Assembly (NCBI GenBank): GCA_045636425.1
Contig: JAZTXM010000006.1
Location: forward strand, 8,784 to 72,783
Source: Clostridia bacterium
Lineage (GTDB): Bacteria; Bacillota; Clostridia; UMGS1883
Direction of reading: 5' to 3'
DNA length: 64,000 bases
In this document: positions 39,669-50,064 of the stretch, piece by piece
How the letters are laid out: each line of letters begins with the position of its first letter
Position numbering within the stretch: the first letter of the stretch is position 1
Program-made: the position numbers and the translations under genes
Notes under the pieces: generated by a model
Told to the model about the DNA's origin: nothing
What the model saw: only the letters and a program-made list of their open reading frames with translations
Databases searched by the model: none

Positions 39669-39697
39669 TTGACATTTAACCCACATGGATATATAAT
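39669..39697 (+). promoter_or_regulatory. Consensus sigma-A promoter (TTGACA-17-TATAAT) driving a short sRNA (module A)
   Basis: Perfect -35 and -10 hexamers with a 17-nt spacer. Confidence 0.65.
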
Positions 39698-39703
39698 GAA
39701 TAT

Positions 39704-39775
39704 AGAAAAAGGCAAAACCTCAAACGGTTATGCCAAAGAATAGTTGCAAATTTTAAAGAGTAACCGTCTTTGCCG
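39704..39775 (+). ncRNA. Putative antisense sRNA A, about 72 nt, of a type I toxin-antitoxin-like module
   Basis: Lies between the consensus promoter and an intrinsic terminator (9-bp stem gagtaaccg/cggttactc + TGCTTTT). Overlaps the 3' end of the convergent small hydrophobic ORF. About 85% identical to the paralog at 45688-45779. Confidence 0.5.
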
Positions 39776-39833
39776 AGGCGGTTACTCTGCTTTTATCGCA
39801 AATGTTATTAACAACACAATTGTTAGAAAGAAT
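39762..39833 (-). CDS. Type I toxin-like small hydrophobic peptide, paralog A (IQYILRIFFLTIVLLITFAIKAE). Its start position is ATT rather than ATG, so it is possibly inactivated
   Basis: Homologous to ORF 45629-45697 in sequence and context. Own RBS AGGAGG 8 nt upstream. Promoter TTGAAA-17-TATAAT on the minus strand at 39908-39936. Confidence 0.35.
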
Positions 39834-40024
39834 ATTCTTAATATGTATTGAATAACTACCACCTCCTCTCGGAGCGTGGCATAACCGCCGGTGAAAAACA
39901 CCGTTAAGAAGTTTTGCCTTCCTAAACATTATATCGTATTTTCCCCGGCGTTTCAAGAAAAATTTTGAATTAACATAAAACATCCCCCTTTTGGATAATA
40001 TATCTCTAAAAGGGGGCTTTTTCT

Positions 40025-41225: not shown

Positions 41226-41486
41226 GTGGTTATCAGATATTCAAAAAACGCATTGCGATTTCTAAGCAAGTTGGATAAAAACTCTGTAACGCGTATAAGA
41301 AATGCTGTAGATGGATTGCTTCATATTCCGCCTGAGGGCGATATAAAGCTTCTCAAGGGATATGATGATGCTCGCAAAAGGTTGCGTGTAGGTTCATGGC
41401 GTATAATTTTCAAGTATGTAGCGGAAAATAAGCTTGAAATATTATATATTATAGATATAGGTAATCGTGGGGACATATATAAGTGA
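41226..41486 (+). CDS. Type II toxin, RelE/StbE (ParE superfamily) family; GTG start
   Basis: Aligns with E. coli RelE across its length (ALRFLSKL...KLLKG...RLRVGSWRIIFKY...LEILYIIDIGNRGDIYK). RBS GGAGGA 7 nt before GTG. Confidence 0.7.
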   Translation: MVIRYSKNALRFLSKLDKNSVTRIRNAVDGLLHIPPEGDIKLLKGYDDARKRLRVGSWRIIFKYVAENKLEILYIIDIGNRGDIYK

Positions 41487-41498
41487 GGAGGAGATACA

Positions 41499-41720
41499 AT
41501 GTCTGAAATTGTTGCTAATGCAGCTCGAATGATGGAAATGTTGCCTGATTCTGAAAAAAGCTTTGCATTTGAGTTTATAAAAAAGCTTGTCCTTGCGTGG
41601 GATCCTGATTTTACAAAAGTCACTGCGGAAGAAGCAAAGCAAATAGAGGCAGCGGAACAAAGCGGTTTTGTTGATGAGAAGGATATAGACTGGAACAACC
41701 TGTCAAAAATGTTTGACTAA
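41499..41720 (+). CDS. Small acidic protein (73 aa), candidate cognate antitoxin encoded downstream of the toxin
   Basis: Follows relE-like 12 nt later with RBS GGAGGAG; no recognisable HTH or RHH; terminated by a perfect palindromic hairpin at 41722-41757. Confidence 0.35.
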   Translation: MSEIVANAARMMEMLPDSEKSFAFEFIKKLVLAWDPDFTKVTAEEAKQIEAAEQSGFVDEKDIDWNNLSKMFD

Positions 41721-42098: not shown

Positions 42099-45000
42099 AT
42101 GAGAAATCTCAAGAAGACACTCGCAGTTGTTCTTGCATTTGCTATGATTCTCAGCATGGGTCTTACATCCATGGCTGCGTATTCAGACGTAGAAGCAGGA
42201 ACAAAAGTTTCCGAGGCTGTTGGTATCCTTTCTAACCTTAACATTCTTACAGGTTTTGAAGATGGTACATTCAAGCCCGACGAAACTGTTACAAGAGCTC
42301 AGATGGCTGCTATCATCTGCCGTACACTCGGTTACGAAGATCAGGCACAGTCAAGCATGGGCACAACAGTATTTAACGACGTTGCCGCTGATCACTGGGC
42401 ATCAGGCTACATCAACGTAGCTCAGGCACAGCAGATCATCAACGGTTACGGTGATGGTAACTACGGTCCCGAGGATCAGGTTACTTACGAGCAGGCAGTT
42501 AAGATGATCGTTTCCGCTCTTGGTTACGACCTTGCTGCACAGTCAAAGGGTGGTTACCCCACAGGTTACCTTGCAATCGCTTCTGCTGAGGGCATCACAA
42601 AGAGTGCTAACGGTAAGGTAGGCGACGCTGCTGCAAGAGGAACAATCGCAATTCTCGTTTACAACTCTCTCGAAGTTCGCCTTATGGACCAGGCTTCTTG
42701 GTCTACAGGTTCTGACGGAGACAAGTATGAGAAGACAGACGACACAATCCTTTCTAAGTACCTTGAGGTGTTAAAGGTTGAAGGTGTTGTTACAAAGACT
42801 CCTTTTGCTACCTATGAATCTAAGGGCTTTGACGCTGACATGGTTCCCGAAATGACAATTGATGGTAAGGAATTCTACTACAATAAAGGTGTAGAAGAAA
42901 CTAAATCATATTCAGATACAGTTGATTGCAGCCTTGTTGATGCTGACTCACTCCTTGGTAAGTACGTTGTTGCTTACATTGGTGCTGACGAAGACGACAA
43001 TACAGGTAATGTAATGGTTTACGCTGTTTCTGAAAAGCAGAATAAGAACGTTGTTACAACAGTAGCAAGCACACAGCTTGTAGATTCTACTGATACAAAG
43101 TATTTTAATAACGCTAAGCAGGTTTGCTACAGGGAAGTAGGTTCAACAAGAGTTATTGAACTCGACCTCGAACAGACTGCAGCAGAATTCAAAGTATATG
43201 AAAACTTTGGTACAAGCACATTTACAAACGCTTCTACAACAGCTAACCTTGCTACAATTCTCCAGGAGGGTGGCATGGCTCAGTTCATCAGCAATGACAA
43301 TGATGATGCTATCGAATATGTAATCATCACTGCATTTGATGAAGAAGGCGTTATCGAAAACGTAACTAATGAAGATGGCGTTATTATGTTCGACCTCTTC
43401 TACGGTGACCTTGCTGATATCGATACAGAAGACGAAGATGAGCTCACAGTTGTTTACAAAGACGGTGCTCTTGCAACAGCTGCTGATCTTGCTGCAAACG
43501 ATACAGTTTCTACTGTAAACGTTCACAAGACTGTTAAGGTTCTCTACGCTTCTTCTGCAACAGTTACAGGTGCTGTTGAGTCTCATGATGACGAAGTTGT
43601 AACAATCGGTGGTACTGACTACAAAGTTGGCCTTCAGTACAGCGGAGATGCAAGCCTTCTTAAGGATAAGGAAGGTATCTTCTTCCTTAACGTTGGCGGT
43701 ATCATCGCTCACGACGAAGCAGATTCAACAGCTTCAGGCAACTACGGTGTAGTTCTTGCTGTTGATTACGAAGATGGTATTACAGATGGTTATGTAATGC
43801 AGGTTGTTCTTCAGGACGGTACGGTAGCTGAGTATGAAGTTTCTTCTAAGGTTGCTTATACAAAGGCTGACGGTTCTGCTCTTGCAGTAGGTGATGGTCT
43901 TAGCAAGGATGACGTTGCAGCAGCTGCTGTAGCTTCAGGTATCACAGGTGCTACTGTAACAGCAAATGCTTCAGGCTTCACAACTAAGAACCTTACTTCT
44001 ACGAACGCTCAGGCTGCTGTATACAAGTTTACAGTTAAGAACGGCGAAATCACAAAGATTAAGGAAGTTGAATCTTCTACAGAAGTTAAAGAATATACAA
44101 GCAGCGATGTTAAGAAATATGATGCTGAGTCTATGAGCTATGGTTCATATGAATTCGACGAAAGCTCTATCGTATTCGCAATTGACCATGCAAAGGGTGC
44201 TACTCAGGTTACAGACGATGATATCGCTGTAGGTGGCGTATCTTCTTTCATCGCTGATGAAGATGATAGCCTTGCACTTATTCTCTTCACAGAGAAGAAT
44301 AAGGACGTTGTAACATTCGCAATTGGCTTTGGTCTTACAGCAAGTATCCCCGAAGAGTCTGCTGCAATCATCGTATCAGCAGTTAAGAATGTTACTTATG
44401 ATGATGACGAAGCTATTCAGGTAACAGGTATCCAGGCAGGCGAAGAAGTAACTTACATCATCTATGATGAAAACAGTGGTTACACATCAAATCCTGAAAA
44501 CATCGAAAAGGGTGACGTAATCCTTGTTTCTGCTGCAACAGCTGAAGGTGTAGTAGAAGACTGCAAGATCCTTCTTGACATTTCTGCTAAGACAGCAGCA
44601 GCAGGCATCGCTGCTGATGAAAGTGCTAACACATTTGCTCTTCTCGGCGGATTCTACAACGACGATGCTGCTGCAACATCTTCTAAGTTCTTCATTGATA
44701 AGGATGTTACAATCCCCACAACTCCTTCTGCTACAACTTGGGCAGCATCCGGAGACGGTATCACAATGAAGACATCTGCTAACTACACACTTGTAGATTA
44801 CACAGATGGTGAAAAGAACCCTGTTATCGAGAAGAAGAATCCCGGAACTTCACTCTTCAGCAAGAGATATCCTGCTTACGTATTCGTAAGAGTATATGAC
44901 GATGTTCTTACAGAAGTTGTTGTTTACCGTTATGATGAAGATAAAGTTCTTTCTGCACAGGGTACAGGATTCAAGGTTGCAGATCCTGTAATCAAGTTTA

Positions 45001-45206
45001 ATGATGACAAAACAAAGGCTACAATCACATGTGCTACAGAGGGTGCTACAATTATGTACAAACTCAACAGCGGTGAATTTGCAAAATATACAGAGGAAAT
45101 TACTGTAACAGCAGGTGATGTTGTTCAGGCTTATGCTACAAAGACAGCTTGTACAACAAGCGATACTGCTTCGGAAACAGTTCCTACTCCTGCTCCCGCA
45201 GCTTAA
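42099..45206 (+). CDS. Major S-layer protein candidate (1035 aa), N-terminal SLH triplet
   Basis: Signal peptide; three SLH repeats; a large Thr/Ala/Val/Asp-rich beta-rich body. Codon usage is strongly biased toward T/C-ending codons, a highly-expressed-gene signature distinct from its neighbours. Confidence 0.8.
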   Translation: MRNLKKTLAVVLAFAMILSMGLTSMAAYSDVEAGTKVSEAVGILSNLNILTGFEDGTFKPDETVTRAQMAAIICRTLGYEDQAQSSMGTTVFNDVAADHWASGYINVAQAQQIINGYGDGNYGPEDQVTYEQAVKMIVSALGYDLAAQSKGGYPTGYLAIASAEGITKSANGKVGDAAARGTIAILVYNSLEVRLMDQASWSTGSDGDKYEKTDDTILSKYLEVLKVEGVVTKTPFATYESKGFDADMVPEMTIDGKEFYYNKGVEETKSYSDTVDCSLVDADSLLGKYVVAYIGADEDDNTGNVMVYAVSEKQNKNVVTTVASTQLVDSTDTKYFNNAKQVCYREVGSTRVIELDLEQTAAEFKVYENFGTSTFTNASTTANLATILQEGGMAQFISNDNDDAIEYVIITAFDEEGVIENVTNEDGVIMFDLFYGDLADIDTEDEDELTVVYKDGALATAADLAANDTVSTVNVHKTVKVLYASSATVTGAVESHDDEVVTIGGTDYKVGLQYSGDASLLKDKEGIFFLNVGGIIAHDEADSTASGNYGVVLAVDYEDGITDGYVMQVVLQDGTVAEYEVSSKVAYTKADGSALAVGDGLSKDDVAAAAVASGITGATVTANASGFTTKNLTSTNAQAAVYKFTVKNGEITKIKEVESSTEVKEYTSSDVKKYDAESMSYGSYEFDESSIVFAIDHAKGATQVTDDDIAVGGVSSFIADEDDSLALILFTEKNKDVVTFAIGFGLTASIPEESAAIIVSAVKNVTYDDDEAIQVTGIQAGEEVTYIIYDENSGYTSNPENIEKGDVILVSAATAEGVVEDCKILLDISAKTAAAGIAADESANTFALLGGFYNDDAAATSSKFFIDKDVTIPTTPSATTWAASGDGITMKTSANYTLVDYTDGEKNPVIEKKNPGTSLFSKRYPAYVFVRVYDDVLTEVVVYRYDEDKVLSAQGTGFKVADPVIKFNDDKTKATITCATEGATIMYKLNSGEFAKYTEEITVTAGDVVQAYATKTACTTSDTASETVPTPAPAA

Positions 45207-45259
45207 TCTTTGACTCTTATAAAATTAATAGTCAATTAAAAAAGGACAGTCCCGAAAGG

Positions 45260-45446
45260 GGCTGTTCTTTTTTGTCCGCTTGACAACAAGCATCAAAAGT
45301 GGTAAAATATGCCCATAATCTTTATTGGAGGGGATAAAATGACAAAGCGTATTACATGTGTACTGATGATGTTCATCCTTGTGTCACAAGGATGCTTTGC
45401 ACAGGACGTGTTTTTTGGAAAAGCCAGAACAGAGGAATATATTCCG
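45260..45446. repeat. 187-bp direct repeat, copy 1, identical to 46798-46983. It contains a promoter, RBS and the first 36 codons of the transglutaminase-like gene
   Basis: Both copies can be aligned in the raw sequence. Confidence 0.85.
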
Positions 45447-45493
45447 GTGATAATGGGGACGGGTGATAATGGGGACGTACATTTTTTGTCAAC
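45447..45493. repeat. Solo copy of the element end: two copies of the 13-mer GTGA(T/C)AATGGGGAC followed by GTACATTTTTTGTCAAC
   Basis: Nearly identical to 45839-45885 and to the inner part of the inverted right end at 46675-46793. Confidence 0.75.
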
Positions 45494-45514
45494 TTTTCCC
45501 AAAACAAAAAGCCA

Positions 45515-45543
45515 ACCGAAGTTGACTTTTCTTTCGCAATACT
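45515..45543 (+). promoter_or_regulatory. Consensus promoter TTGACT-17-TATAAT for the type I toxin-like mRNA (module B)
   Basis: Perfect -10 hexamer, 5/6 match in -35, 17-nt spacer. Confidence 0.6.
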
Positions 45544-45628
45544 ATATAATAGAACACAAGGTAAGACCTAAAACAGTGTAACAGCTGGGCGGTTATGCCA
45601 TCATCTTCTTTTAAGGAGGTGATAGCTT

Positions 45629-45697
45629 ATGGATAGTGAATACATAATATCTTTTATGTTAATTCTGTTACTTTTAGTAATTTCCATAAAAAAATAA
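45629..45697 (+). CDS. Type I toxin-like small hydrophobic peptide (22 aa): MDSEYIISFMLILLLLVISIKK
   Basis: RBS AAGGAGG 9 nt upstream of ATG; a single predicted TM helix with a C-terminal KK; stop codon inside the stem of a bidirectional terminator; convergent antisense promoter downstream. Confidence 0.5.
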   Translation: MDSEYIISFMLILLLLVISIKK

Positions 45698-45779
45698 CGC
45701 CAGCCGACCAAAGCAATAGCGTTATTTTTTAAATAATTCTGATGTTTTGGCATAACCGTTTGAGGTCTTGCCTTTTTCT
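45688..45779 (-). ncRNA. Putative antisense sRNA B, about 90 nt, convergent with the toxin-like ORF and overlapping it 3'-to-3'
   Basis: Minus-strand promoter TTGACT (45809-45814)-17-TATAAT (45786-45791). Ends at the shared hairpin (aataacgc/gcgttatt) plus U-tract. About 85% identical to sRNA A. Confidence 0.5.
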
Positions 45780-45880
45780 ATTTACATTATATAACCACAT
45801 AGGGAAAAAGTCAACCCCTAATATAGAAAATCCATCTAGGTGACAATGGGGACGGGTGACAATGGGGACGTACATTTTTG

Positions 45881-46618
45881 TCAACTTTTGTATATTATTC
45901 CTCGCGATATCCCGGTCACCCGTTCCAGTTGTCGTATTGAATACTCTTTCTTCATTTTATTTAACATCGCATTTCGCTCTTTCTTTTCCATGGTACAGAT
46001 GTTTTTAGGCTCAATTTTGTACTTTTTTATTATCCTTCTTCTTATTTCATCATCTGTCAGCTTTACTTTTCCATCTACATTAAAATCGCTCTCTTCGTCT
46101 TGTTTGTGAAACTCAACAAATTCTTCTTTGCTTATCATTCCCAAGATAAAATCCTTGTCAGTTATTCTGGATTCATCAAAAATGTACTCATTATAACTCG
46201 ACCATTCATAGTCCTTCAATTCATCTACTATTCCTGCCTTTTTAGGATTTTGATGTATATATCGGACTAAGCATAAAAAATATTCATCTACATCAACAGC
46301 CTTACTTTTATATCTGTTTGCAATTAATGCTCCGCTTCTTCCATACTTTATATTGTACCAGCGAGCATATTTTGTCAAAACCCTTTTCATTATCAGCGAT
46401 ATTTCACCGGCAGTTTTTTCTTTTAACAAAATATGTACGTGGTTACTCATCAGACAAAACGCATATATTTCGTATTCCATTTCGATTTTGATGCTGTTTA
46501 ATATCTCTATCAACTTTTCATAATCCACCGATTCTTCAAAAATATGCTGCCTGTTTACTCCTCTAAAAACAATGTGGTATATCCCACTTTGACTGATCAC
46601 TCTCGCTGCCCTTGCCAT
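45881..46618 (-). CDS. IS200/IS605-type Y1 transposase-like protein (245 aa) with a C-terminal HTH extension
   Basis: HuH motif (SNHVHILL) and catalytic Tyr region (RYIHQNP) of the Transposase_17/Y1_Tnp family; C-terminal SIRQLERVTGISRGIIYKS helix-turn-helix. Confidence 0.75.
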   Translation of the reverse strand: MARAARVISQSGIYHIVFRGVNRQHIFEESVDYEKLIEILNSIKIEMEYEIYAFCLMSNHVHILLKEKTAGEISLIMKRVLTKYARWYNIKYGRSGALIANRYKSKAVDVDEYFLCLVRYIHQNPKKAGIVDELKDYEWSSYNEYIFDESRITDKDFILGMISKEEFVEFHKQDEESDFNVDGKVKLTDDEIRRRIIKKYKIEPKNICTMEKKERNAMLNKMKKEYSIRQLERVTGISRGIIYKS

Positions 46619-46674
46619 TTTCTCATCTCCTTTCTATGAATTGTATCACGCTTAATCATATTAGTCAAGGAAAA

Positions 46675-46793
46675 GTTGACAAAAAATGTACGTCCCCATT
46701 GTCATCCCCATTGTCAGTCCCCATTGTCACCGTCCCCATTGTCACCCATTGTCACCCATTGTCACCAATGTCACTCCGTCCCCATTGTCACTC
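46675..46793. repeat. Right inverted end: about 8 tandem copies of the CCCCATTGTCA(C) 12-13-mer
   Basis: Direct reading of the sequence; inverted relative to the left-end 13-mers. Confidence 0.85.
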
Positions 46794-46875
46794 AACTGCT
46801 GTTCTTTTTTGTCCGCTTGACAGCAGAGTAAGAATGTAGTAAAATATATCCATAATCCTTATTGGAGGGGATAAA

Positions 46876-48285
46876 ATGACAAAGCGTATTACATGTGTAC
46901 TGATGATGTTCATCCTTGTGTCACAAGGATGCTTTGCACAGGACGTGTTTTTTGGAAAAGCCAGAACAGAGGAATATATTCCGATTAGCGGTTCGCTTTT
47001 TGAAAATTCCGAGGGTATAGCCTGCGAGGAAGATGAGCCGTCCATAAGCTTTTTTAACAATTTATCTTTCGAGGAATATATTCTTCAGGCGGTGACTGAA
47101 CGTGAGACTTTCCCCACGGAGATTCCGGGACTAGGTCAGTACAATCTTACAACAGAAGAATTTTTGAAATTATACAGAGATGTTGCGATGAGGAATCCCG
47201 AGGCATTTATAACACCGTCGTGTACGTACTACTACAATAGCAGTGGAATAGTTACAAGTGTAGTGCCTGAATATGTGCTTGAAAACAAAGCCGAGATGGA
47301 ATCTGCAATCTTTCAAATGAATGAGGCAATAAAGGAATATACAGACCTTGCTGCAAAGTATGATACAGAGCTTGAAAAATTGCTCGTAATCCATGATAAA
47401 ATGGTTGCCGAATGTGACTATGATGTGAATGTGCTGAATGAAGCAACTGAGAGTTTGGCAGAGCGTAGTGTATACCATGCCTTTGGTGCTTTGTGTAAAA
47501 GTAAAAAGAAGGCAGTGTGCCAGGGGTATTCACAGGCACTTTATATGATTGCCAATAAAATCGGTATAGAGATTGATTTTTGCCGCTCCGCAGAGAGAAA
47601 GCATATGTGGAACTATGTGAAGCTTGATGGCAAGTGGTACCACATGGATATGACCAATGACGACCCGTTAATCAAAGATGAAAACGGACTTGTTTCAGCA
47701 AGAAAAGACCCTCGTGCGAAGCATAGTTACTTCCTTGTGTCGGATAGCGGCCTTGAAAAGAGTATACATGGAACGGATTACGGCAATATCTTCGGCGAAA
47801 GATATACTTGTGACGATAAGCGGTACGAATCAGACCATTTGTTTAATATGAATCTGGTATTTACCGCTCAAAAAGATGAGAATGGATATTACACCGTTGA
47901 GATTGAAAACATAGTGGGACCATTGGGAACAGGTATTGCCATTCCGCTTAGAAGCAAAACCTTGTATACAGGCCCTGTGGTGACTTATCCGTTTGTAACA
48001 GAGACTCCCGTGGGTGTTACATCAAGCGGTCAATTAGTGACAAAACCGTGTCTTTACCTGGCGCAGTATGCGACAAAGGATATCCCCCCTGCAATTCCTT
48101 TTATAAAAATGGAGGATGGGATAAAGTCTTTCCCTGTGCAGGATGATTTCACAAAGGACAGCTATTATATGATAGGAATAGCAAGGGATGTGGAAAGTAA
48201 CCCCGTTTCGGAATTTTCTTCATTCCTCTTTGGAGAGGGGACGCTTTGCCCGCACTCAATCAACAAAAATTGGGTTTTGCGATAA
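46876..48285 (+). CDS. Secreted transglutaminase-like (cysteine protease fold) domain protein
   Basis: Signal peptide; Cys-His-Asp core (CQGYSQALY...HMWNYV...DMTNDDP). Confidence 0.6.
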   Translation: MTKRITCVLMMFILVSQGCFAQDVFFGKARTEEYIPISGSLFENSEGIACEEDEPSISFFNNLSFEEYILQAVTERETFPTEIPGLGQYNLTTEEFLKLYRDVAMRNPEAFITPSCTYYYNSSGIVTSVVPEYVLENKAEMESAIFQMNEAIKEYTDLAAKYDTELEKLLVIHDKMVAECDYDVNVLNEATESLAERSVYHAFGALCKSKKKAVCQGYSQALYMIANKIGIEIDFCRSAERKHMWNYVKLDGKWYHMDMTNDDPLIKDENGLVSARKDPRAKHSYFLVSDSGLEKSIHGTDYGNIFGERYTCDDKRYESDHLFNMNLVFTAQKDENGYYTVEIENIVGPLGTGIAIPLRSKTLYTGPVVTYPFVTETPVGVTSSGQLVTKPCLYLAQYATKDIPPAIPFIKMEDGIKSFPVQDDFTKDSYYMIGIARDVESNPVSEFSSFLFGEGTLCPHSINKNWVLR

Positions 48286-48435
48286 CGAGTCTTTTCGCCG
48301 AGAAATTTAATAGTTATAAAAGAGACACATTGGGGACAGTCCCCAATGTGTCTCTTTTTAGCTTAATTCATGGGCTTTTTATGTAAAAATAGAAAATTAT
48401 ACTTGACTTTTGCCCCGTAGGGTGGTACATTATTG

Positions 48436-48462
48436 TTAGCACTCAAAAAGGTTGAGTGCTAA
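48436..48462 (+). promoter_or_regulatory. CIRCE operator (TTAGCACTC-N9-GAGTGCTAA), HrcA binding site
   Basis: Perfect consensus inverted repeat immediately upstream of hrcA. Confidence 0.9.
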
Positions 48463-48485
48463 CAATAGAAAACGGAGGTGAGCAT

Positions 48486-49547
48486 ATGGAGCTTTCAAAC
48501 AGAAAAAAAGCTATTCTTCAGGCGATTATCGAGGATTATATTCAGACGGCAGAGCCCGTAGGCTCACGAAATATTGCAAAAAATCACGACCTTGGGCTAT
48601 CGGCGGCAACCATTCGTAACGAAATGGCGGATTTGGAGGAAATGGGCTATCTTGATAAGCCCCATACCTCTGCCGGAAGAATCCCATCGGAAATGGGCTA
48701 CAGATTCTATGTAGACAGTCTGATGCACCGCTACAGCCTTACCATGGAGGAAATTTCGAGCCTGCAAAGCAGTATGGACAGAAAGTATAGTCAGCTTGAA
48801 AATGTGATTTCTGAAATTTCCGACATTATTTCAAAAACCACAAACTACCCTGCCATCGTGGAGCTTCCTGCGGAAAACTCCTGTAGGCTCAAAAGTGTGA
48901 AAATGATGCTTATCGAGCAGGGAAGCGTGCTTATCGTCGTGGTGACCGATGCGGGCGTTGTCCGTAATCGTCATATGAAGGTTGGCGCAAATATCGACTA
49001 TGAGGTTGTGGATTCCATATCGGAATTTTTGTCAGGACAGCTTACGGGGCTTTGTGCGGAGGATTTCACCCCTGCCCGCCTCATGCTTATATATGAAGCG
49101 ATGGCGTCCTACGGTGACTTTTTAAAAACCGTTATCGAGTTTGTCCTTGAATGTTTGGGCAATTCAAAAAGCAGAGTTTATATCGGCGGAGCTTCCAATA
49201 TTCTTAATAATCCTGAATTTGAAAATATAGACCGTGCAAGGGAGTTTCTCACTTTCATTGACAGGAAAGAAAATGTGTCCCGTATGCTTAGCCTTACGGA
49301 AAGTGGGAATGATGAACATATCAGCATCAAAATCGGAAGCGAAAATCAGGCGCCCGAAATGCGTGACACGAGCCTGGTTGTTGCCAACTATAACGTCGGC
49401 GGTAAGCTTTACGGAAAAATCGGCATTATAGGCCCCAAGCGTATGAACTACGCCAGAGTGGTTTCATCGCTGGAGCTTATTAACAGGCAGCTCAGCGAAA
49501 TATTGGGCAGAATGATCTACGGAAAGGACGATACAGATGGCAACTAA
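48486..49547 (+). CDS. hrcA: Heat-inducible transcription repressor HrcA
   Basis: Start moved to ATG at 48486, downstream of CIRCE, RBS GGAGGTG; full-length HrcA similarity. Confidence 0.9.
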   Translation: MELSNRKKAILQAIIEDYIQTAEPVGSRNIAKNHDLGLSAATIRNEMADLEEMGYLDKPHTSAGRIPSEMGYRFYVDSLMHRYSLTMEEISSLQSSMDRKYSQLENVISEISDIISKTTNYPAIVELPAENSCRLKSVKMMLIEQGSVLIVVVTDAGVVRNRHMKVGANIDYEVVDSISEFLSGQLTGLCAEDFTPARLMLIYEAMASYGDFLKTVIEFVLECLGNSKSRVYIGGASNILNNPEFENIDRAREFLTFIDRKENVSRMLSLTESGNDEHISIKIGSENQAPEMRDTSLVVANYNVGGKLYGKIGIIGPKRMNYARVVSSLELINRQLSEILGRMIYGKDDTDGN

Positions 49548-50064
49548 GAAAAAGACAGAAGAAGCACAGGAAATCAAGGAGCAGGAAGTAACTGAAAGTG
49601 AAGAAGTAACCGAAGAAGCTCCTTTGGAAGAAGAAAACGAATTTGAAAAAAAGTACAACGATGTAAATGAAAAATATCTTCGCACACTTGCCGAATATGA
49701 TAACTATCGCAAGCGTACCATTAAAGAGAAGGAAAGCATTTACCCCGAAGCAAAGGCGGTGGTGATAGAAAAATTCCTACCCGTGCTTGACAATTTTCAG
49801 CGTGCGATTGAAAGTGCGGAGAATAAGGACGCTTTTTACGACGGCGTAGTAATGCTGAAAAAACAAATGGATGAAGTTCTTTCTGCTCTCGGCGTGGAAG
49901 AAATTAAAGCCGTGGGTGAGGAATTTAATCCCGAAGTTCACAATGCCGTAATGCATGTGGAGGACGAGGAAGCGGGCGAAAATATTATCGTGGAAGAATT
50001 TCAAAAAGGATATAAAATCGGCGACCGTGTAATAAGACACAGCATGGTAAAAGTAGCAAATTAA
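49537..50064 (+). CDS. grpE: Nucleotide exchange factor GrpE
   Basis: GrpE family; operon position. Confidence 0.9.
   Translation: MATKKKTEEAQEIKEQEVTESEEVTEEAPLEEENEFEKKYNDVNEKYLRTLAEYDNYRKRTIKEKESIYPEAKAVVIEKFLPVLDNFQRAIESAENKDAFYDGVVMLKKQMDEVLSALGVEEIKAVGEEFNPEVHNAVMHVEDEEAGENIIVEEFQKGYKIGDRVIRHSMVKVAN

Follow-up and report, generated by a model that had tools for sequence, protein, structure and literature searches.

A probable type I toxin-antitoxin-like module with a predicted 5'-3' mRNA clamp, from an apparently undescribed family of uncultured gut and rumen Clostridia

Homology searches are poorly suited to finding type I toxin-antitoxin loci. In the 3'-overlapping systems of Bacillus, the antisense RNA acts mainly by triggering decay of the toxin mRNA, and in hok/Sok (R1) and aapA1/IsoA1 (Helicobacter pylori) base pairing between the two ends of the full-length toxin mRNA closes the molecule, with the Shine-Dalgarno sequence (SD) occluded; we know of no such 5'-3' clamp in the txpA, bsrG, bsrE or yonT mRNAs of Bacillus. 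The par locus (Fst / RNA I-RNA II, pAD1, Enterococcus faecalis) combines convergent promoters, a common terminator hairpin that is the likely site of first contact, a hairpin that hides the SD, a helix that tucks in the mRNA 5' end, repeats at the 5' ends of both RNAs, and a small hydrophobic peptide with a charged C-terminus (PMC7472228). In Clostridia, type I loci are essentially known only from Clostridioides difficile (PMC6563280), where the toxin and antitoxin genes of the CD-RCd systems are convergent and overlapping, and where the toxins (30-56 aa, with a hydrophobic N-terminus and a lysine-rich C-terminus) are found on prophages or beside CRISPR arrays; searches for known toxins in other Clostridia yielded almost nothing, and the type I systems covered by that review are the C. 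difficile families and a few TxpA-/Fst-like matches (PMC6563280). The locus described here lies in a 64,000-nt stretch of an uncultured Clostridia bacterium (assembly GCA_045636425.1, contig JAZTXM010000006.1, positions 8,784 to 72,783; hereafter the window), where an earlier note, made from the letters of the DNA alone, had proposed a candidate type I toxin-antitoxin module at 45507-45815. This proposal is supported by a coding open reading frame (ORF), an antisense promoter, a predicted sequestration of the SD, and multiple, tandem and orphan copies, and the locus (copy 1) probably belongs to a large, apparently undescribed family of chromosomal type I toxin-antitoxin-like modules in uncultured gut and rumen Clostridia.

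Promoter-like sites are common in the region of copy 1 (19 by consensus scan, against 8.1 +/- 3.3 in shuffles), so that a lone match is weak evidence and the case rests on related sequences. These were collected by scanning one genome per species with a 28-nt pattern (GGCATAACCNNNNNNGGTNTTGCCTTTT) taken from the antisense-proximal block; the homologue counts given throughout (125, 123, 120, 87, 83 and 79) are drawn from the matches listed, and the family totals are at least as large. The scan returned at least 120 loci, and all listed matches are metagenome-assembled genomes of uncultured gut or rumen Clostridia, with uncultured Clostridia, Oscillospiraceae, Ruminococcus, Acutalibacteraceae and Ornithomonoglobus among the carriers. 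Only 7 matches to the pattern were obtained in 2.9 million viral contigs; the loci are mostly chromosomal. An independent pattern drawn from the ORF end, which does not depend on the pairing arms discussed below, also found the module in human-gut metagenome contigs, mostly as close relatives that added little covariation. In the window itself, nhmmer detects exactly two copies.

The ORF is conserved together with its SD: an SD followed by a hydrophobic ORF of 20-24 aa is kept in 96 of the 125 instances, with the ORF ending 40-54 nt before the pattern (element b1, see below). The peptides fall into subfamilies A (MDNEYIISFMIILLLLVISIKK, with copy 1), B (MEYVYIMIYIITLIVLIITIKK), C (MGKYILRIIFLTVVFLIALTKKVR, with copy 2) and D (MEYDILILALVLFIILSIKK), while subfamily E has no representative peptide and an ambiguous start codon; the grand average of hydropathy (GRAVY) is 1.3-1.8 across the family. 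Nucleotide diversity at codon positions 1/2/3 is 3.46/1.48/5.62 in subfamily A, and the synonymous share of single-base codon differences reaches 50-60% in subfamilies A and B (50% in A). This codon pattern indicates that the ORF is translated, and that purifying selection on the protein maintains a hydrophobic helix. Two or more copies stand in tandem or in clusters at 12 of 120 loci, and 14 orphan antisense halves occur among the instances, in which unrelated sequence takes the place of the toxin 5' half, while the antisense promoter, the antisense RNA's 5' hairpin and usually the terminator stem-loop persist. Taken together, the paralogue, the more than 120 homologous loci, the coding signature and the conserved promoters with varying spacers indicate that copy 1 is not a chance line-up of signals, and confidence is high that a conserved module of peptide and antisense RNA is real.

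Three observations belong beside these counts. Orphan antisense halves were seen at loci L005, L023, L026, L034, L037, L046, L055, L072, L084, L090, L102, L109 and L110. At the subfamily E loci (L044, L048, L054, L091, L092, L106, L111 and L118), the ATG next to the SD (MKSKH...) and the hydrophobic peptide (MAKKLL...IKAQ) are in different frames, the hydrophobic one beginning ~30 nt later, after an A-run, and in L086 both are in frame and give 30 aa; an internal start, slippage on the A-run, or decay of the gene are possible explanations. Finally, copy 2 (ATT at 39851-39853, minus strand) and the homologous locus L042 carry ATT where other subfamily C members carry ATG.

Across the family, the mRNA strand shows the same order of parts: promoter, a1, a small hairpin (P2), a2, an anti-SD/SD hairpin, the ORF, a stem-loop over the stop codon (T1), an AU-rich stretch of 11-18 nt, b1-GTTTGA-b2 and TTTTTCTAT, beyond which the opposite strand carries the -10 and then the -35 box of the antisense promoter (Table 1). 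Many members have an extra 5' hairpin (GTCGGAGAAATCCGAC) between promoter and a1, whose family consensus is AAGGYAAGACY, and P2 covaries (CAGTG..GCTG, CGGTG..CACCG, CGGC..GCCG, GGAATG..CATTCC). Of 123 instances, 101 have the full antisense promoter consensus of the family, TTGACA-17-TATAAT (12 of 12), and another 19 miss it by a single base (11 of 12). The spacer varies in sequence, and the promoter is placed so that transcription would start 5-7 nt before GGCAAGACC. The mRNA promoter keeps the same place in homologues with mostly 10-11 of 12 matches, and is thus the weaker of the two; a stronger antisense promoter is typical of type I systems. Folding of 87 homologues predicts a locked SD (median probability of being unpaired, 0.01), and the helix that holds it has changed on both sides (UA 36, UG 24, CG 19).

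T1 in copy 1 is flanked by an A-tract on one side and a T-tract on the other; a terminator scan did not list it because its loop measures 18 nt, and it does form in RNA folds. Its stem covaries in the family (TAACGCC, TAACACGCC, GATAGCCCC, AATAACCGCC, GTAACCCCC and others), and CAA[AG] is kept in the loop of 61 out of 79 unique cases, where shuffles give 19.7. Read in the antisense RNA this is YUUG (from CCAAAG in copy 1), a U-turn-type motif that would fit a loop-loop contact as the first step of RNA pairing. The antisense RNA would consist, in order, of a leader (AGAAAAA), a 5' hairpin (GGCAAGACC-UCAAAC-GGUUAUGCC), an AU-rich linker, the T1 hairpin and a U-tract. Its 5' hairpin is the minus strand of the b1-b2 DNA, and is near-invariant across the peptide subfamilies.

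Most of what the earlier note had read in copy 1 stands. The strong SD (AAGGAGG) and the 22-codon ORF are present as it described, the hydrophobic peptide (GRAVY 1.54) bears a coding signature in its homologues, the stop codon does sit inside the stem of the terminator, and the opposite-strand promoter with its -10 at 45786-45791 is confirmed, with 11 of 12 matches in copy 1 and near-invariance in homologues. The plus-strand TTGACT-17-TATAAT is present too, although the coordinates first given for it (45515-45543) were off by 7 nt.

Table 1. Features of the two module copies in the window. Transcript ends are inferred; L045, L102 and L110 are diverged homologues discussed in the text.
Feature	Position in the window	Strand	Basis or remark
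Copy 1, mRNA promoter TTGACT-17-TATAAT	45522-45550 (TTGACT 45522-45527; TATAAT 45545-45550)	+	consensus scan, 11/12 matches
Copy 1, putative mRNA transcription start	~45557	+	promoter position
Copy 1, a1 AAGGTAAGACCT, 5' arm of long-range 5'-3' helix, partner b2	45558-45569	+	folds; compensatory change in L045, L102
Copy 1, P2, small hairpin (CAGT/GCTG) of the 5' untranslated region (UTR)	45574-45587	+	covariation among homologues
Copy 1, a2 GGCGGTTATGCC, second 5' arm of long-range helix, partner b1	45588-45599	+	98% of cells paired; compensatory changes in L110, L045, L102
Copy 1, anti-SD/SD hairpin ATCATCTTCT / AGGAGGTGAT, predicted to sequester SD	45600-45623	+	folds; both-sided changes
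Copy 1, SD AAGGAGG	45613-45619	+	9-nt spacer before ORF
Copy 1, ORF, 22-aa hydrophobic peptide MDSEYIISFMLILLLLVISIKK, subfamily A	45629-45697	+	GRAVY 1.54
Copy 1, T1, stem-loop common to both RNAs over stop codon	45689-45730	both	folds; stem covariation
Copy 1, T1 stem arms AAAAAATAACGC / GCGTTATTTTTT	45689-45700 / 45719-45730	both	stop TAA 45695-45697 in 5' arm
Copy 1, b1 GGCATAACC, loop GTTTGA, b2 GGTCTTGCC, TTTTTCT	45749-45779	+	3' arms of long-range helix and U-tract
Copy 1, putative antisense RNA, ~90 nt	45686-45779	-	fold z = -4.1; start set by promoter position
Copy 1, antisense promoter TTGACT-17-TATAAT	45786-45814 (TTGACT 45814-45809; TATAAT 45791-45786)	-	11/12 matches
Copy 2, whole module, subfamily C paralogue, between ispDF and htrA-like gene	39669-39956	-	self-BLAST; fold z = -8.3; nhmmer E = 1.3e-42
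Copy 2, mRNA promoter TTGAAA-17-TATAAT	TTGAAA 39956-39951; TATAAT 39933-39928	-	
Copy 2, a1; a2	39920-39910; 39889-39878	-	
Copy 2, SD GGAGG (within GAGGAGG)	39866-39862	-	
Copy 2, ORF (ATT)QYILRIFFLTIVLLITFAIKAE	39853-39782	-	hydrophobic
Copy 2, T1	39788-39757	-	stem AGAGTAACCG/CGGTTACTCT, differs from copy 1
Copy 2, b1; b2	39734-39726; 39719-39711	-	
Copy 2, antisense promoter TTGACA-17-TATAAT	TTGACA 39669-39674; TATAAT 39692-39697	+	perfect match

A feature that goes beyond these earlier observations is a pairing between the two ends of the mRNA, a1 being complementary to b2 and a2 to b1. With both helices formed, the 226-nt RNA of copy 1 has a folding energy of -73.7 kcal/mol (z = -7.7), and the RNA of copy 2 reaches z = -8.3; in 83 sequences the long-range helices are 96%, 86% and 98% paired, a proportion that falls to at most 49% once the partners are shifted against each other. 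The changes seen in a1 and a2, which the search pattern does not constrain, are transitions that produce U-G or G-U pairs, used by most sequences (at one pair, 62 of 83 have U-G), and because such pairs would be A.C mismatches on the other strand, the clamp is a property of the plus-strand RNA and not of the DNA. Compensatory changes come from three diverged copies found by nhmmer: in L110, a2 GGTTGTGCC faces b1 GGCACAACC with an A-U pair turned into G-C; in L045, a1 GGCAGTTCG faces b2 CGAACTGCC and a2 CGGCTCGCC faces b1 GGCGAGCCG, with 9 positions changed; and in L102, both partners have changed (a2 GGCGGTTTGTC with b1 GGACAAACCGCC). Weaker local hairpins are also available, a1:a2 in the mRNA (copy 1 included) and the reverse complements (rc) of b2 and b1 in the antisense RNA, each with an A.A mismatch.

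The clamp bears on where the mRNA ends. T1 can be relied on to terminate the antisense RNA, since on the minus strand it is always followed by a U-rich tail, encoded by the Lys-Lys-stop codons. On the plus strand, many members of subfamilies C, D and E have no U-tract after T1 (e.g. GGGCTATCTAAAAAC), and a U-tract does follow b2. The terminator first described as bidirectional is thus dependable for the antisense RNA but at best partial on the plus strand, and the mRNA most likely extends ~50 nt past T1 to the U-tract after b2, giving a transcript of ~225 nt with its ends clamped. With such an end the antisense RNA (~90 nt) would be complementary to the mRNA along its whole length, so that the convergent, 3'-overlapping layout proposed earlier is retained while its overlap is revised from ~45 to ~90 nt.

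The same module might nevertheless use T1 as a true bidirectional terminator, with an mRNA of ~175 nt, an overlap of ~45 nt, and a1:a2 and rc(b2):rc(b1) acting only as homologous hairpins at the two 5' ends, which shield the RNAs against 5' exonucleases. This is a tentative alternative, to which a minor but real weight is given. It would account for the presence of GCGTTATTTTTT after the stem on the plus strand in copy 1 and in most members of subfamilies A and B, for the local hairpins formed, with the same single A.A mismatch, by nearly every member, and for the orphan antisense halves that keep the b1-b2 hairpin in the absence of a1 or a2. Independent hairpins, however, need no exact match between a1/a2 and b2/b1, yet both partners have changed in L045, L102 and L110, and mismatches are kept in the local pairing at places where the long-range pairing is perfect. 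The plus-strand U-tract is moreover missing after T1 in many members of subfamilies C, D and E, and the plus-strand b1:b2 hairpin has two mismatches (U.U and A.C).

With the longer, clamped mRNA as the preferred reading, a working mechanism may be proposed. The plus-strand promoter would produce an mRNA for a 22-aa membrane peptide with a single helix, whose SD, held in the anti-SD hairpin, would keep translation intrinsically low. This mRNA would read through T1 and end at the U-tract after b2, and pairing of a1/a2 with b2/b1 would close it into a presumably stable but silent form. From just beyond the U-tract, the minus-strand promoter of consensus strength would produce an RNA of ~90 nt ending at T1, complementary to the last third of the mRNA including its final codons. 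First contact would be made between the complementary T1 hairpin loops through the YUUG motif, followed by zipping into a long duplex; by analogy with the 3'-overlapping Bacillus systems, this duplex would be cleaved by a double-strand-specific activity and decay, and no peptide would be made as long as the antisense RNA is produced.

A second, par-like pairing between the 5' end of the antisense RNA and the translation start was tried and rejected: the median duplex was -19.4 kcal/mol, with shuffled minima of -23.7, and the best duplex sites are a1/a2 rather than the SD or start codon. In the light of these duplex predictions, a translation block of the par type appears unlikely. A further and rather speculative extension, considered improbable as it stands, would have the antitoxin gene built into the clamp, one stretch of DNA specifying both the 5' hairpin of the antisense RNA and the clamp's 3' arm. 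Since the b1-b2 segment is the same in all peptide subfamilies, any antisense RNA could pair with any paralogous mRNA, and every such RNA, orphans included, could unclamp every paralogous toxin mRNA, forming a genome-wide network of cross-protection in place of separate pairs. If this were true, binding of the antisense RNA or trimming of the mRNA 3' end would decide between mRNA decay and activation.

Several points weigh against the mechanism as drawn. Transcription of either RNA, the RNA ends, the toxicity of the peptide and the route of mRNA decay are inferred. Predictions for the long and the short mRNA alike show a closed SD, and no mechanism of activation emerged. A short, T1-terminated mRNA may coexist with the long one, especially in subfamily A, which, copy 1 included, has a good plus-strand T-tract after T1. 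The b1/b2 arms were fixed by the search pattern, so that the covariation of the clamp rests on variation in a1/a2 and on a few diverged copies, and one copy (L103, 7743-7960) has an A.C mismatch in a clamp helix. The ATT of copy 2 and L042 could be a weak conserved start, or could mark an attenuated or dead toxin gene.

Among described systems, par/Fst-Ldr is the closest in layout, with convergent promoters, a common terminator hairpin, an SD stem-loop, a 5'-end helix and repeats at the 5' ends in both, and with a peptide that is likewise small and hydrophobic with a charged C-terminus. The module differs in that its peptides have no PXXXG (there is no proline or glycine motif in any subfamily) and no match to Pfam Fst_toxin, its repeats are inverted and not direct as DRa/DRb are, the antisense 5' end is not complementary to the translation start region, and the mRNA 5' end pairs downstream of the common hairpin. 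With txpA/RatA, bsrG/SR4, bsrE/SR5 and yonT/SR6 of Bacillus subtilis it shares convergent genes with 3'-overlapping RNAs, but the peptides of those systems are unrelated and longer (29-59 aa), the RatA model stays below its gathering score here, and those loci lie in prophage-like regions whereas the module loci are mainly chromosomal. Long-distance 5'-3' pairing of the mRNA and an occluded SD are features in common with hok and aapA1, b1/b2 of the module being fixed by the search pattern; the antisense RNAs of hok/Sok and aapA1/IsoA1, in contrast, target the 5' part of a 3'-processed mRNA, while that of the module is complementary to the clamp's 3' arm and lies at the 3' end of the mRNA. No Hok/Gef domain was matched in Pfam, and the module is unrelated in sequence to either system. 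The CD-RCd systems, compared through their published description, resemble the module in their host class, Clostridia, in convergent overlap and in the make-up of their toxins; they differ in toxin length (30-56 aa) and in their location on prophages or beside CRISPR arrays.

Database searches agree with this comparison, and the peptide family, which the earlier note did not recognise, matched no described family in the Pfam, PADLOC, Rfam and literature searches. The Rfam search, already suggested there, was run over 44000-48000 and gave sub-threshold hits only, among them RatA (RF01776), whose 24.3 bits (E = 5.9) compare with a gathering score of 49. Five representative peptides, scanned against Pfam and PADLOC, returned no family and no Pfam match at E <= 1, blastn of the locus against plasmid and phage collections gave nothing relevant, and a full-text literature search found neither the peptide string nor type I toxins in Ruminococcaceae/Oscillospiraceae. 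What the sequences do show of a type I system is a conserved, coding hydrophobic ORF and a putative overlapping antisense gene with a conserved terminator and a promoter of at least 11/12 matches in 120 of 123 instances. Among type I toxin-antitoxin systems, the module thus appears to represent a family and an architecture that are both new, outside every named family.

Other readings leave the sequence elements in place and change their purpose. The peptide could be a small membrane protein without toxicity, such as one that regulates or is part of a membrane complex, with a cis-antisense RNA adjusting its level and no role for the pair in addiction or defence. In favour of this reading, peptide toxicity is a prediction, the loci are mostly chromosomal with 7 matches among the 2.9 million viral contigs, and one site appears positionally conserved between species. 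We nevertheless consider this unlikely in view of the many diverged paralogues per genome, the tandem copies and the orphan antisense halves with the toxin side deleted, the predicted constitutive locking of the SD, an antisense promoter stronger than that of the mRNA, and the lack of any fixed neighbouring gene among the loci compared. Paralogues, a locked SD, a stronger antisense promoter and no fixed neighbour are traits of type I toxins (Ibs/Sib, Ldr/Rdl, AapA/IsoA) and not of housekeeping small proteins.

Less probable still is that the antisense RNA is the main product, acting in trans or binding a protein, with the ORF and its mRNA secondary or a decoy. The near-invariance of its 5' hairpin across peptide subfamilies and the persistence of this hairpin in 14 loci that lack the ORF side speak for it, but purifying selection acts on the protein that the ORF encodes, no Rfam family matches, and the near-invariance of these 9-12-mers would be explained by a threefold joint constraint (the hairpin of the antisense RNA, the clamp pairing with a1/a2, and a promoter-proximal position). 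As for the a1-a2...b1-b2 inverted repeat, it could in principle represent the ends of a small mobile element, either similar to a miniature inverted-repeat transposable element or associated with repetitive extragenic palindromic (REP) sequences, the ORF being incidental; such an origin is highly improbable. It is suggested by the multi-copy nature of the family and by the setting of copy 1, between REP-like direct repeats and next to a Y1 transposase, but this transposase is found in none of the other 127 loci, conservation reaches beyond the repeat to both promoters, the arms pair through G-U, which is meaningful only in RNA, and the ORF has a coding signature.

The type I-like module, as preferred here, would unite a par-like terminator and locked SD, a 3' overlap like that of txpA and bsrG, and a clamp like that of hok and aapA1. 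Well over a hundred uncultured species of the gut and rumen carry the family, often in several copies per genome, and gene callers miss it because its ORFs have only 20-24 codons. If toxic, these peptides would be among the shortest type I toxins of Gram-positive bacteria, and a sizeable unannotated part of the genomes of gut commensals. The comparative data lead to testable predictions for RNA ends and for mutations.

The two copies in the window lie 6 kb apart and share an identical order of parts, a conserved box in the 5' UTR and an 86%-identical block that includes the antisense promoter of copy 2. Around copy 1, a 186-bp duplication with 97% identity (45261-45446 = 46798-46983) comprises a terminator tail, a promoter (TTGACA-17-TAAAAT) and the first 36 codons of a transglutaminase-like gene (46876-48285); the upstream duplicate (45261-45446) is a truncated gene fragment whose intact promoter points into the module in the sense direction. 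An IS200-like Y1 transposase ORF is located at 45881-46618 on the minus strand (Pfam Y1_Tnp, 60 bits), flanked by inverted arrays of a 14-nt unit (GTGACAATGGGGAC) at 45446-45499, 45839-45889 and 46669-46795, the third array copy resulting in direct repeats on both sides of the copy 1 module. The unit is present in 10 copies, all in this region, against 0.5 expected, and the arrangement of transposase and arrays resembles a REP/RayT unit. The exact REP motif is absent from the other loci, L042 having a related sequence beside its module, and since no other locus has the Y1 transposase, its association with the module is treated as local.

The hrcA region is syntenic between L042 (1-4539) and the window (45500-50018), with 76% identity. 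The module of L042, ~2.5 kb upstream of hrcA, joins a copy-1-like promoter to a copy-2-like body, a mosaic that points to paralogues having recombined within the invariant a1/a2 boxes. Where the window has its transglutaminase-like gene, L042 has a T-box-like leader and a threonyl-tRNA synthetase-like ORF.

Between the two copies, a 29-nt stretch at 41767-41795 matches the outer edge of copy 1 at 90% (AAAAAGTCAACCCC..AATAT.AAAATCC), with the -35 box present and the -10 absent; it lies just past the terminator of a 73-aa gene and may be the remnant of a third module. This 73-aa ORF (41499-41720), which belongs to no family, follows an 86-aa ORF (41226-41486) with weak ParE/RelE-like matches (21 bits, below the Pfam cut-off), and the two may form a type II toxin-antitoxin pair between the two type I-like copies.

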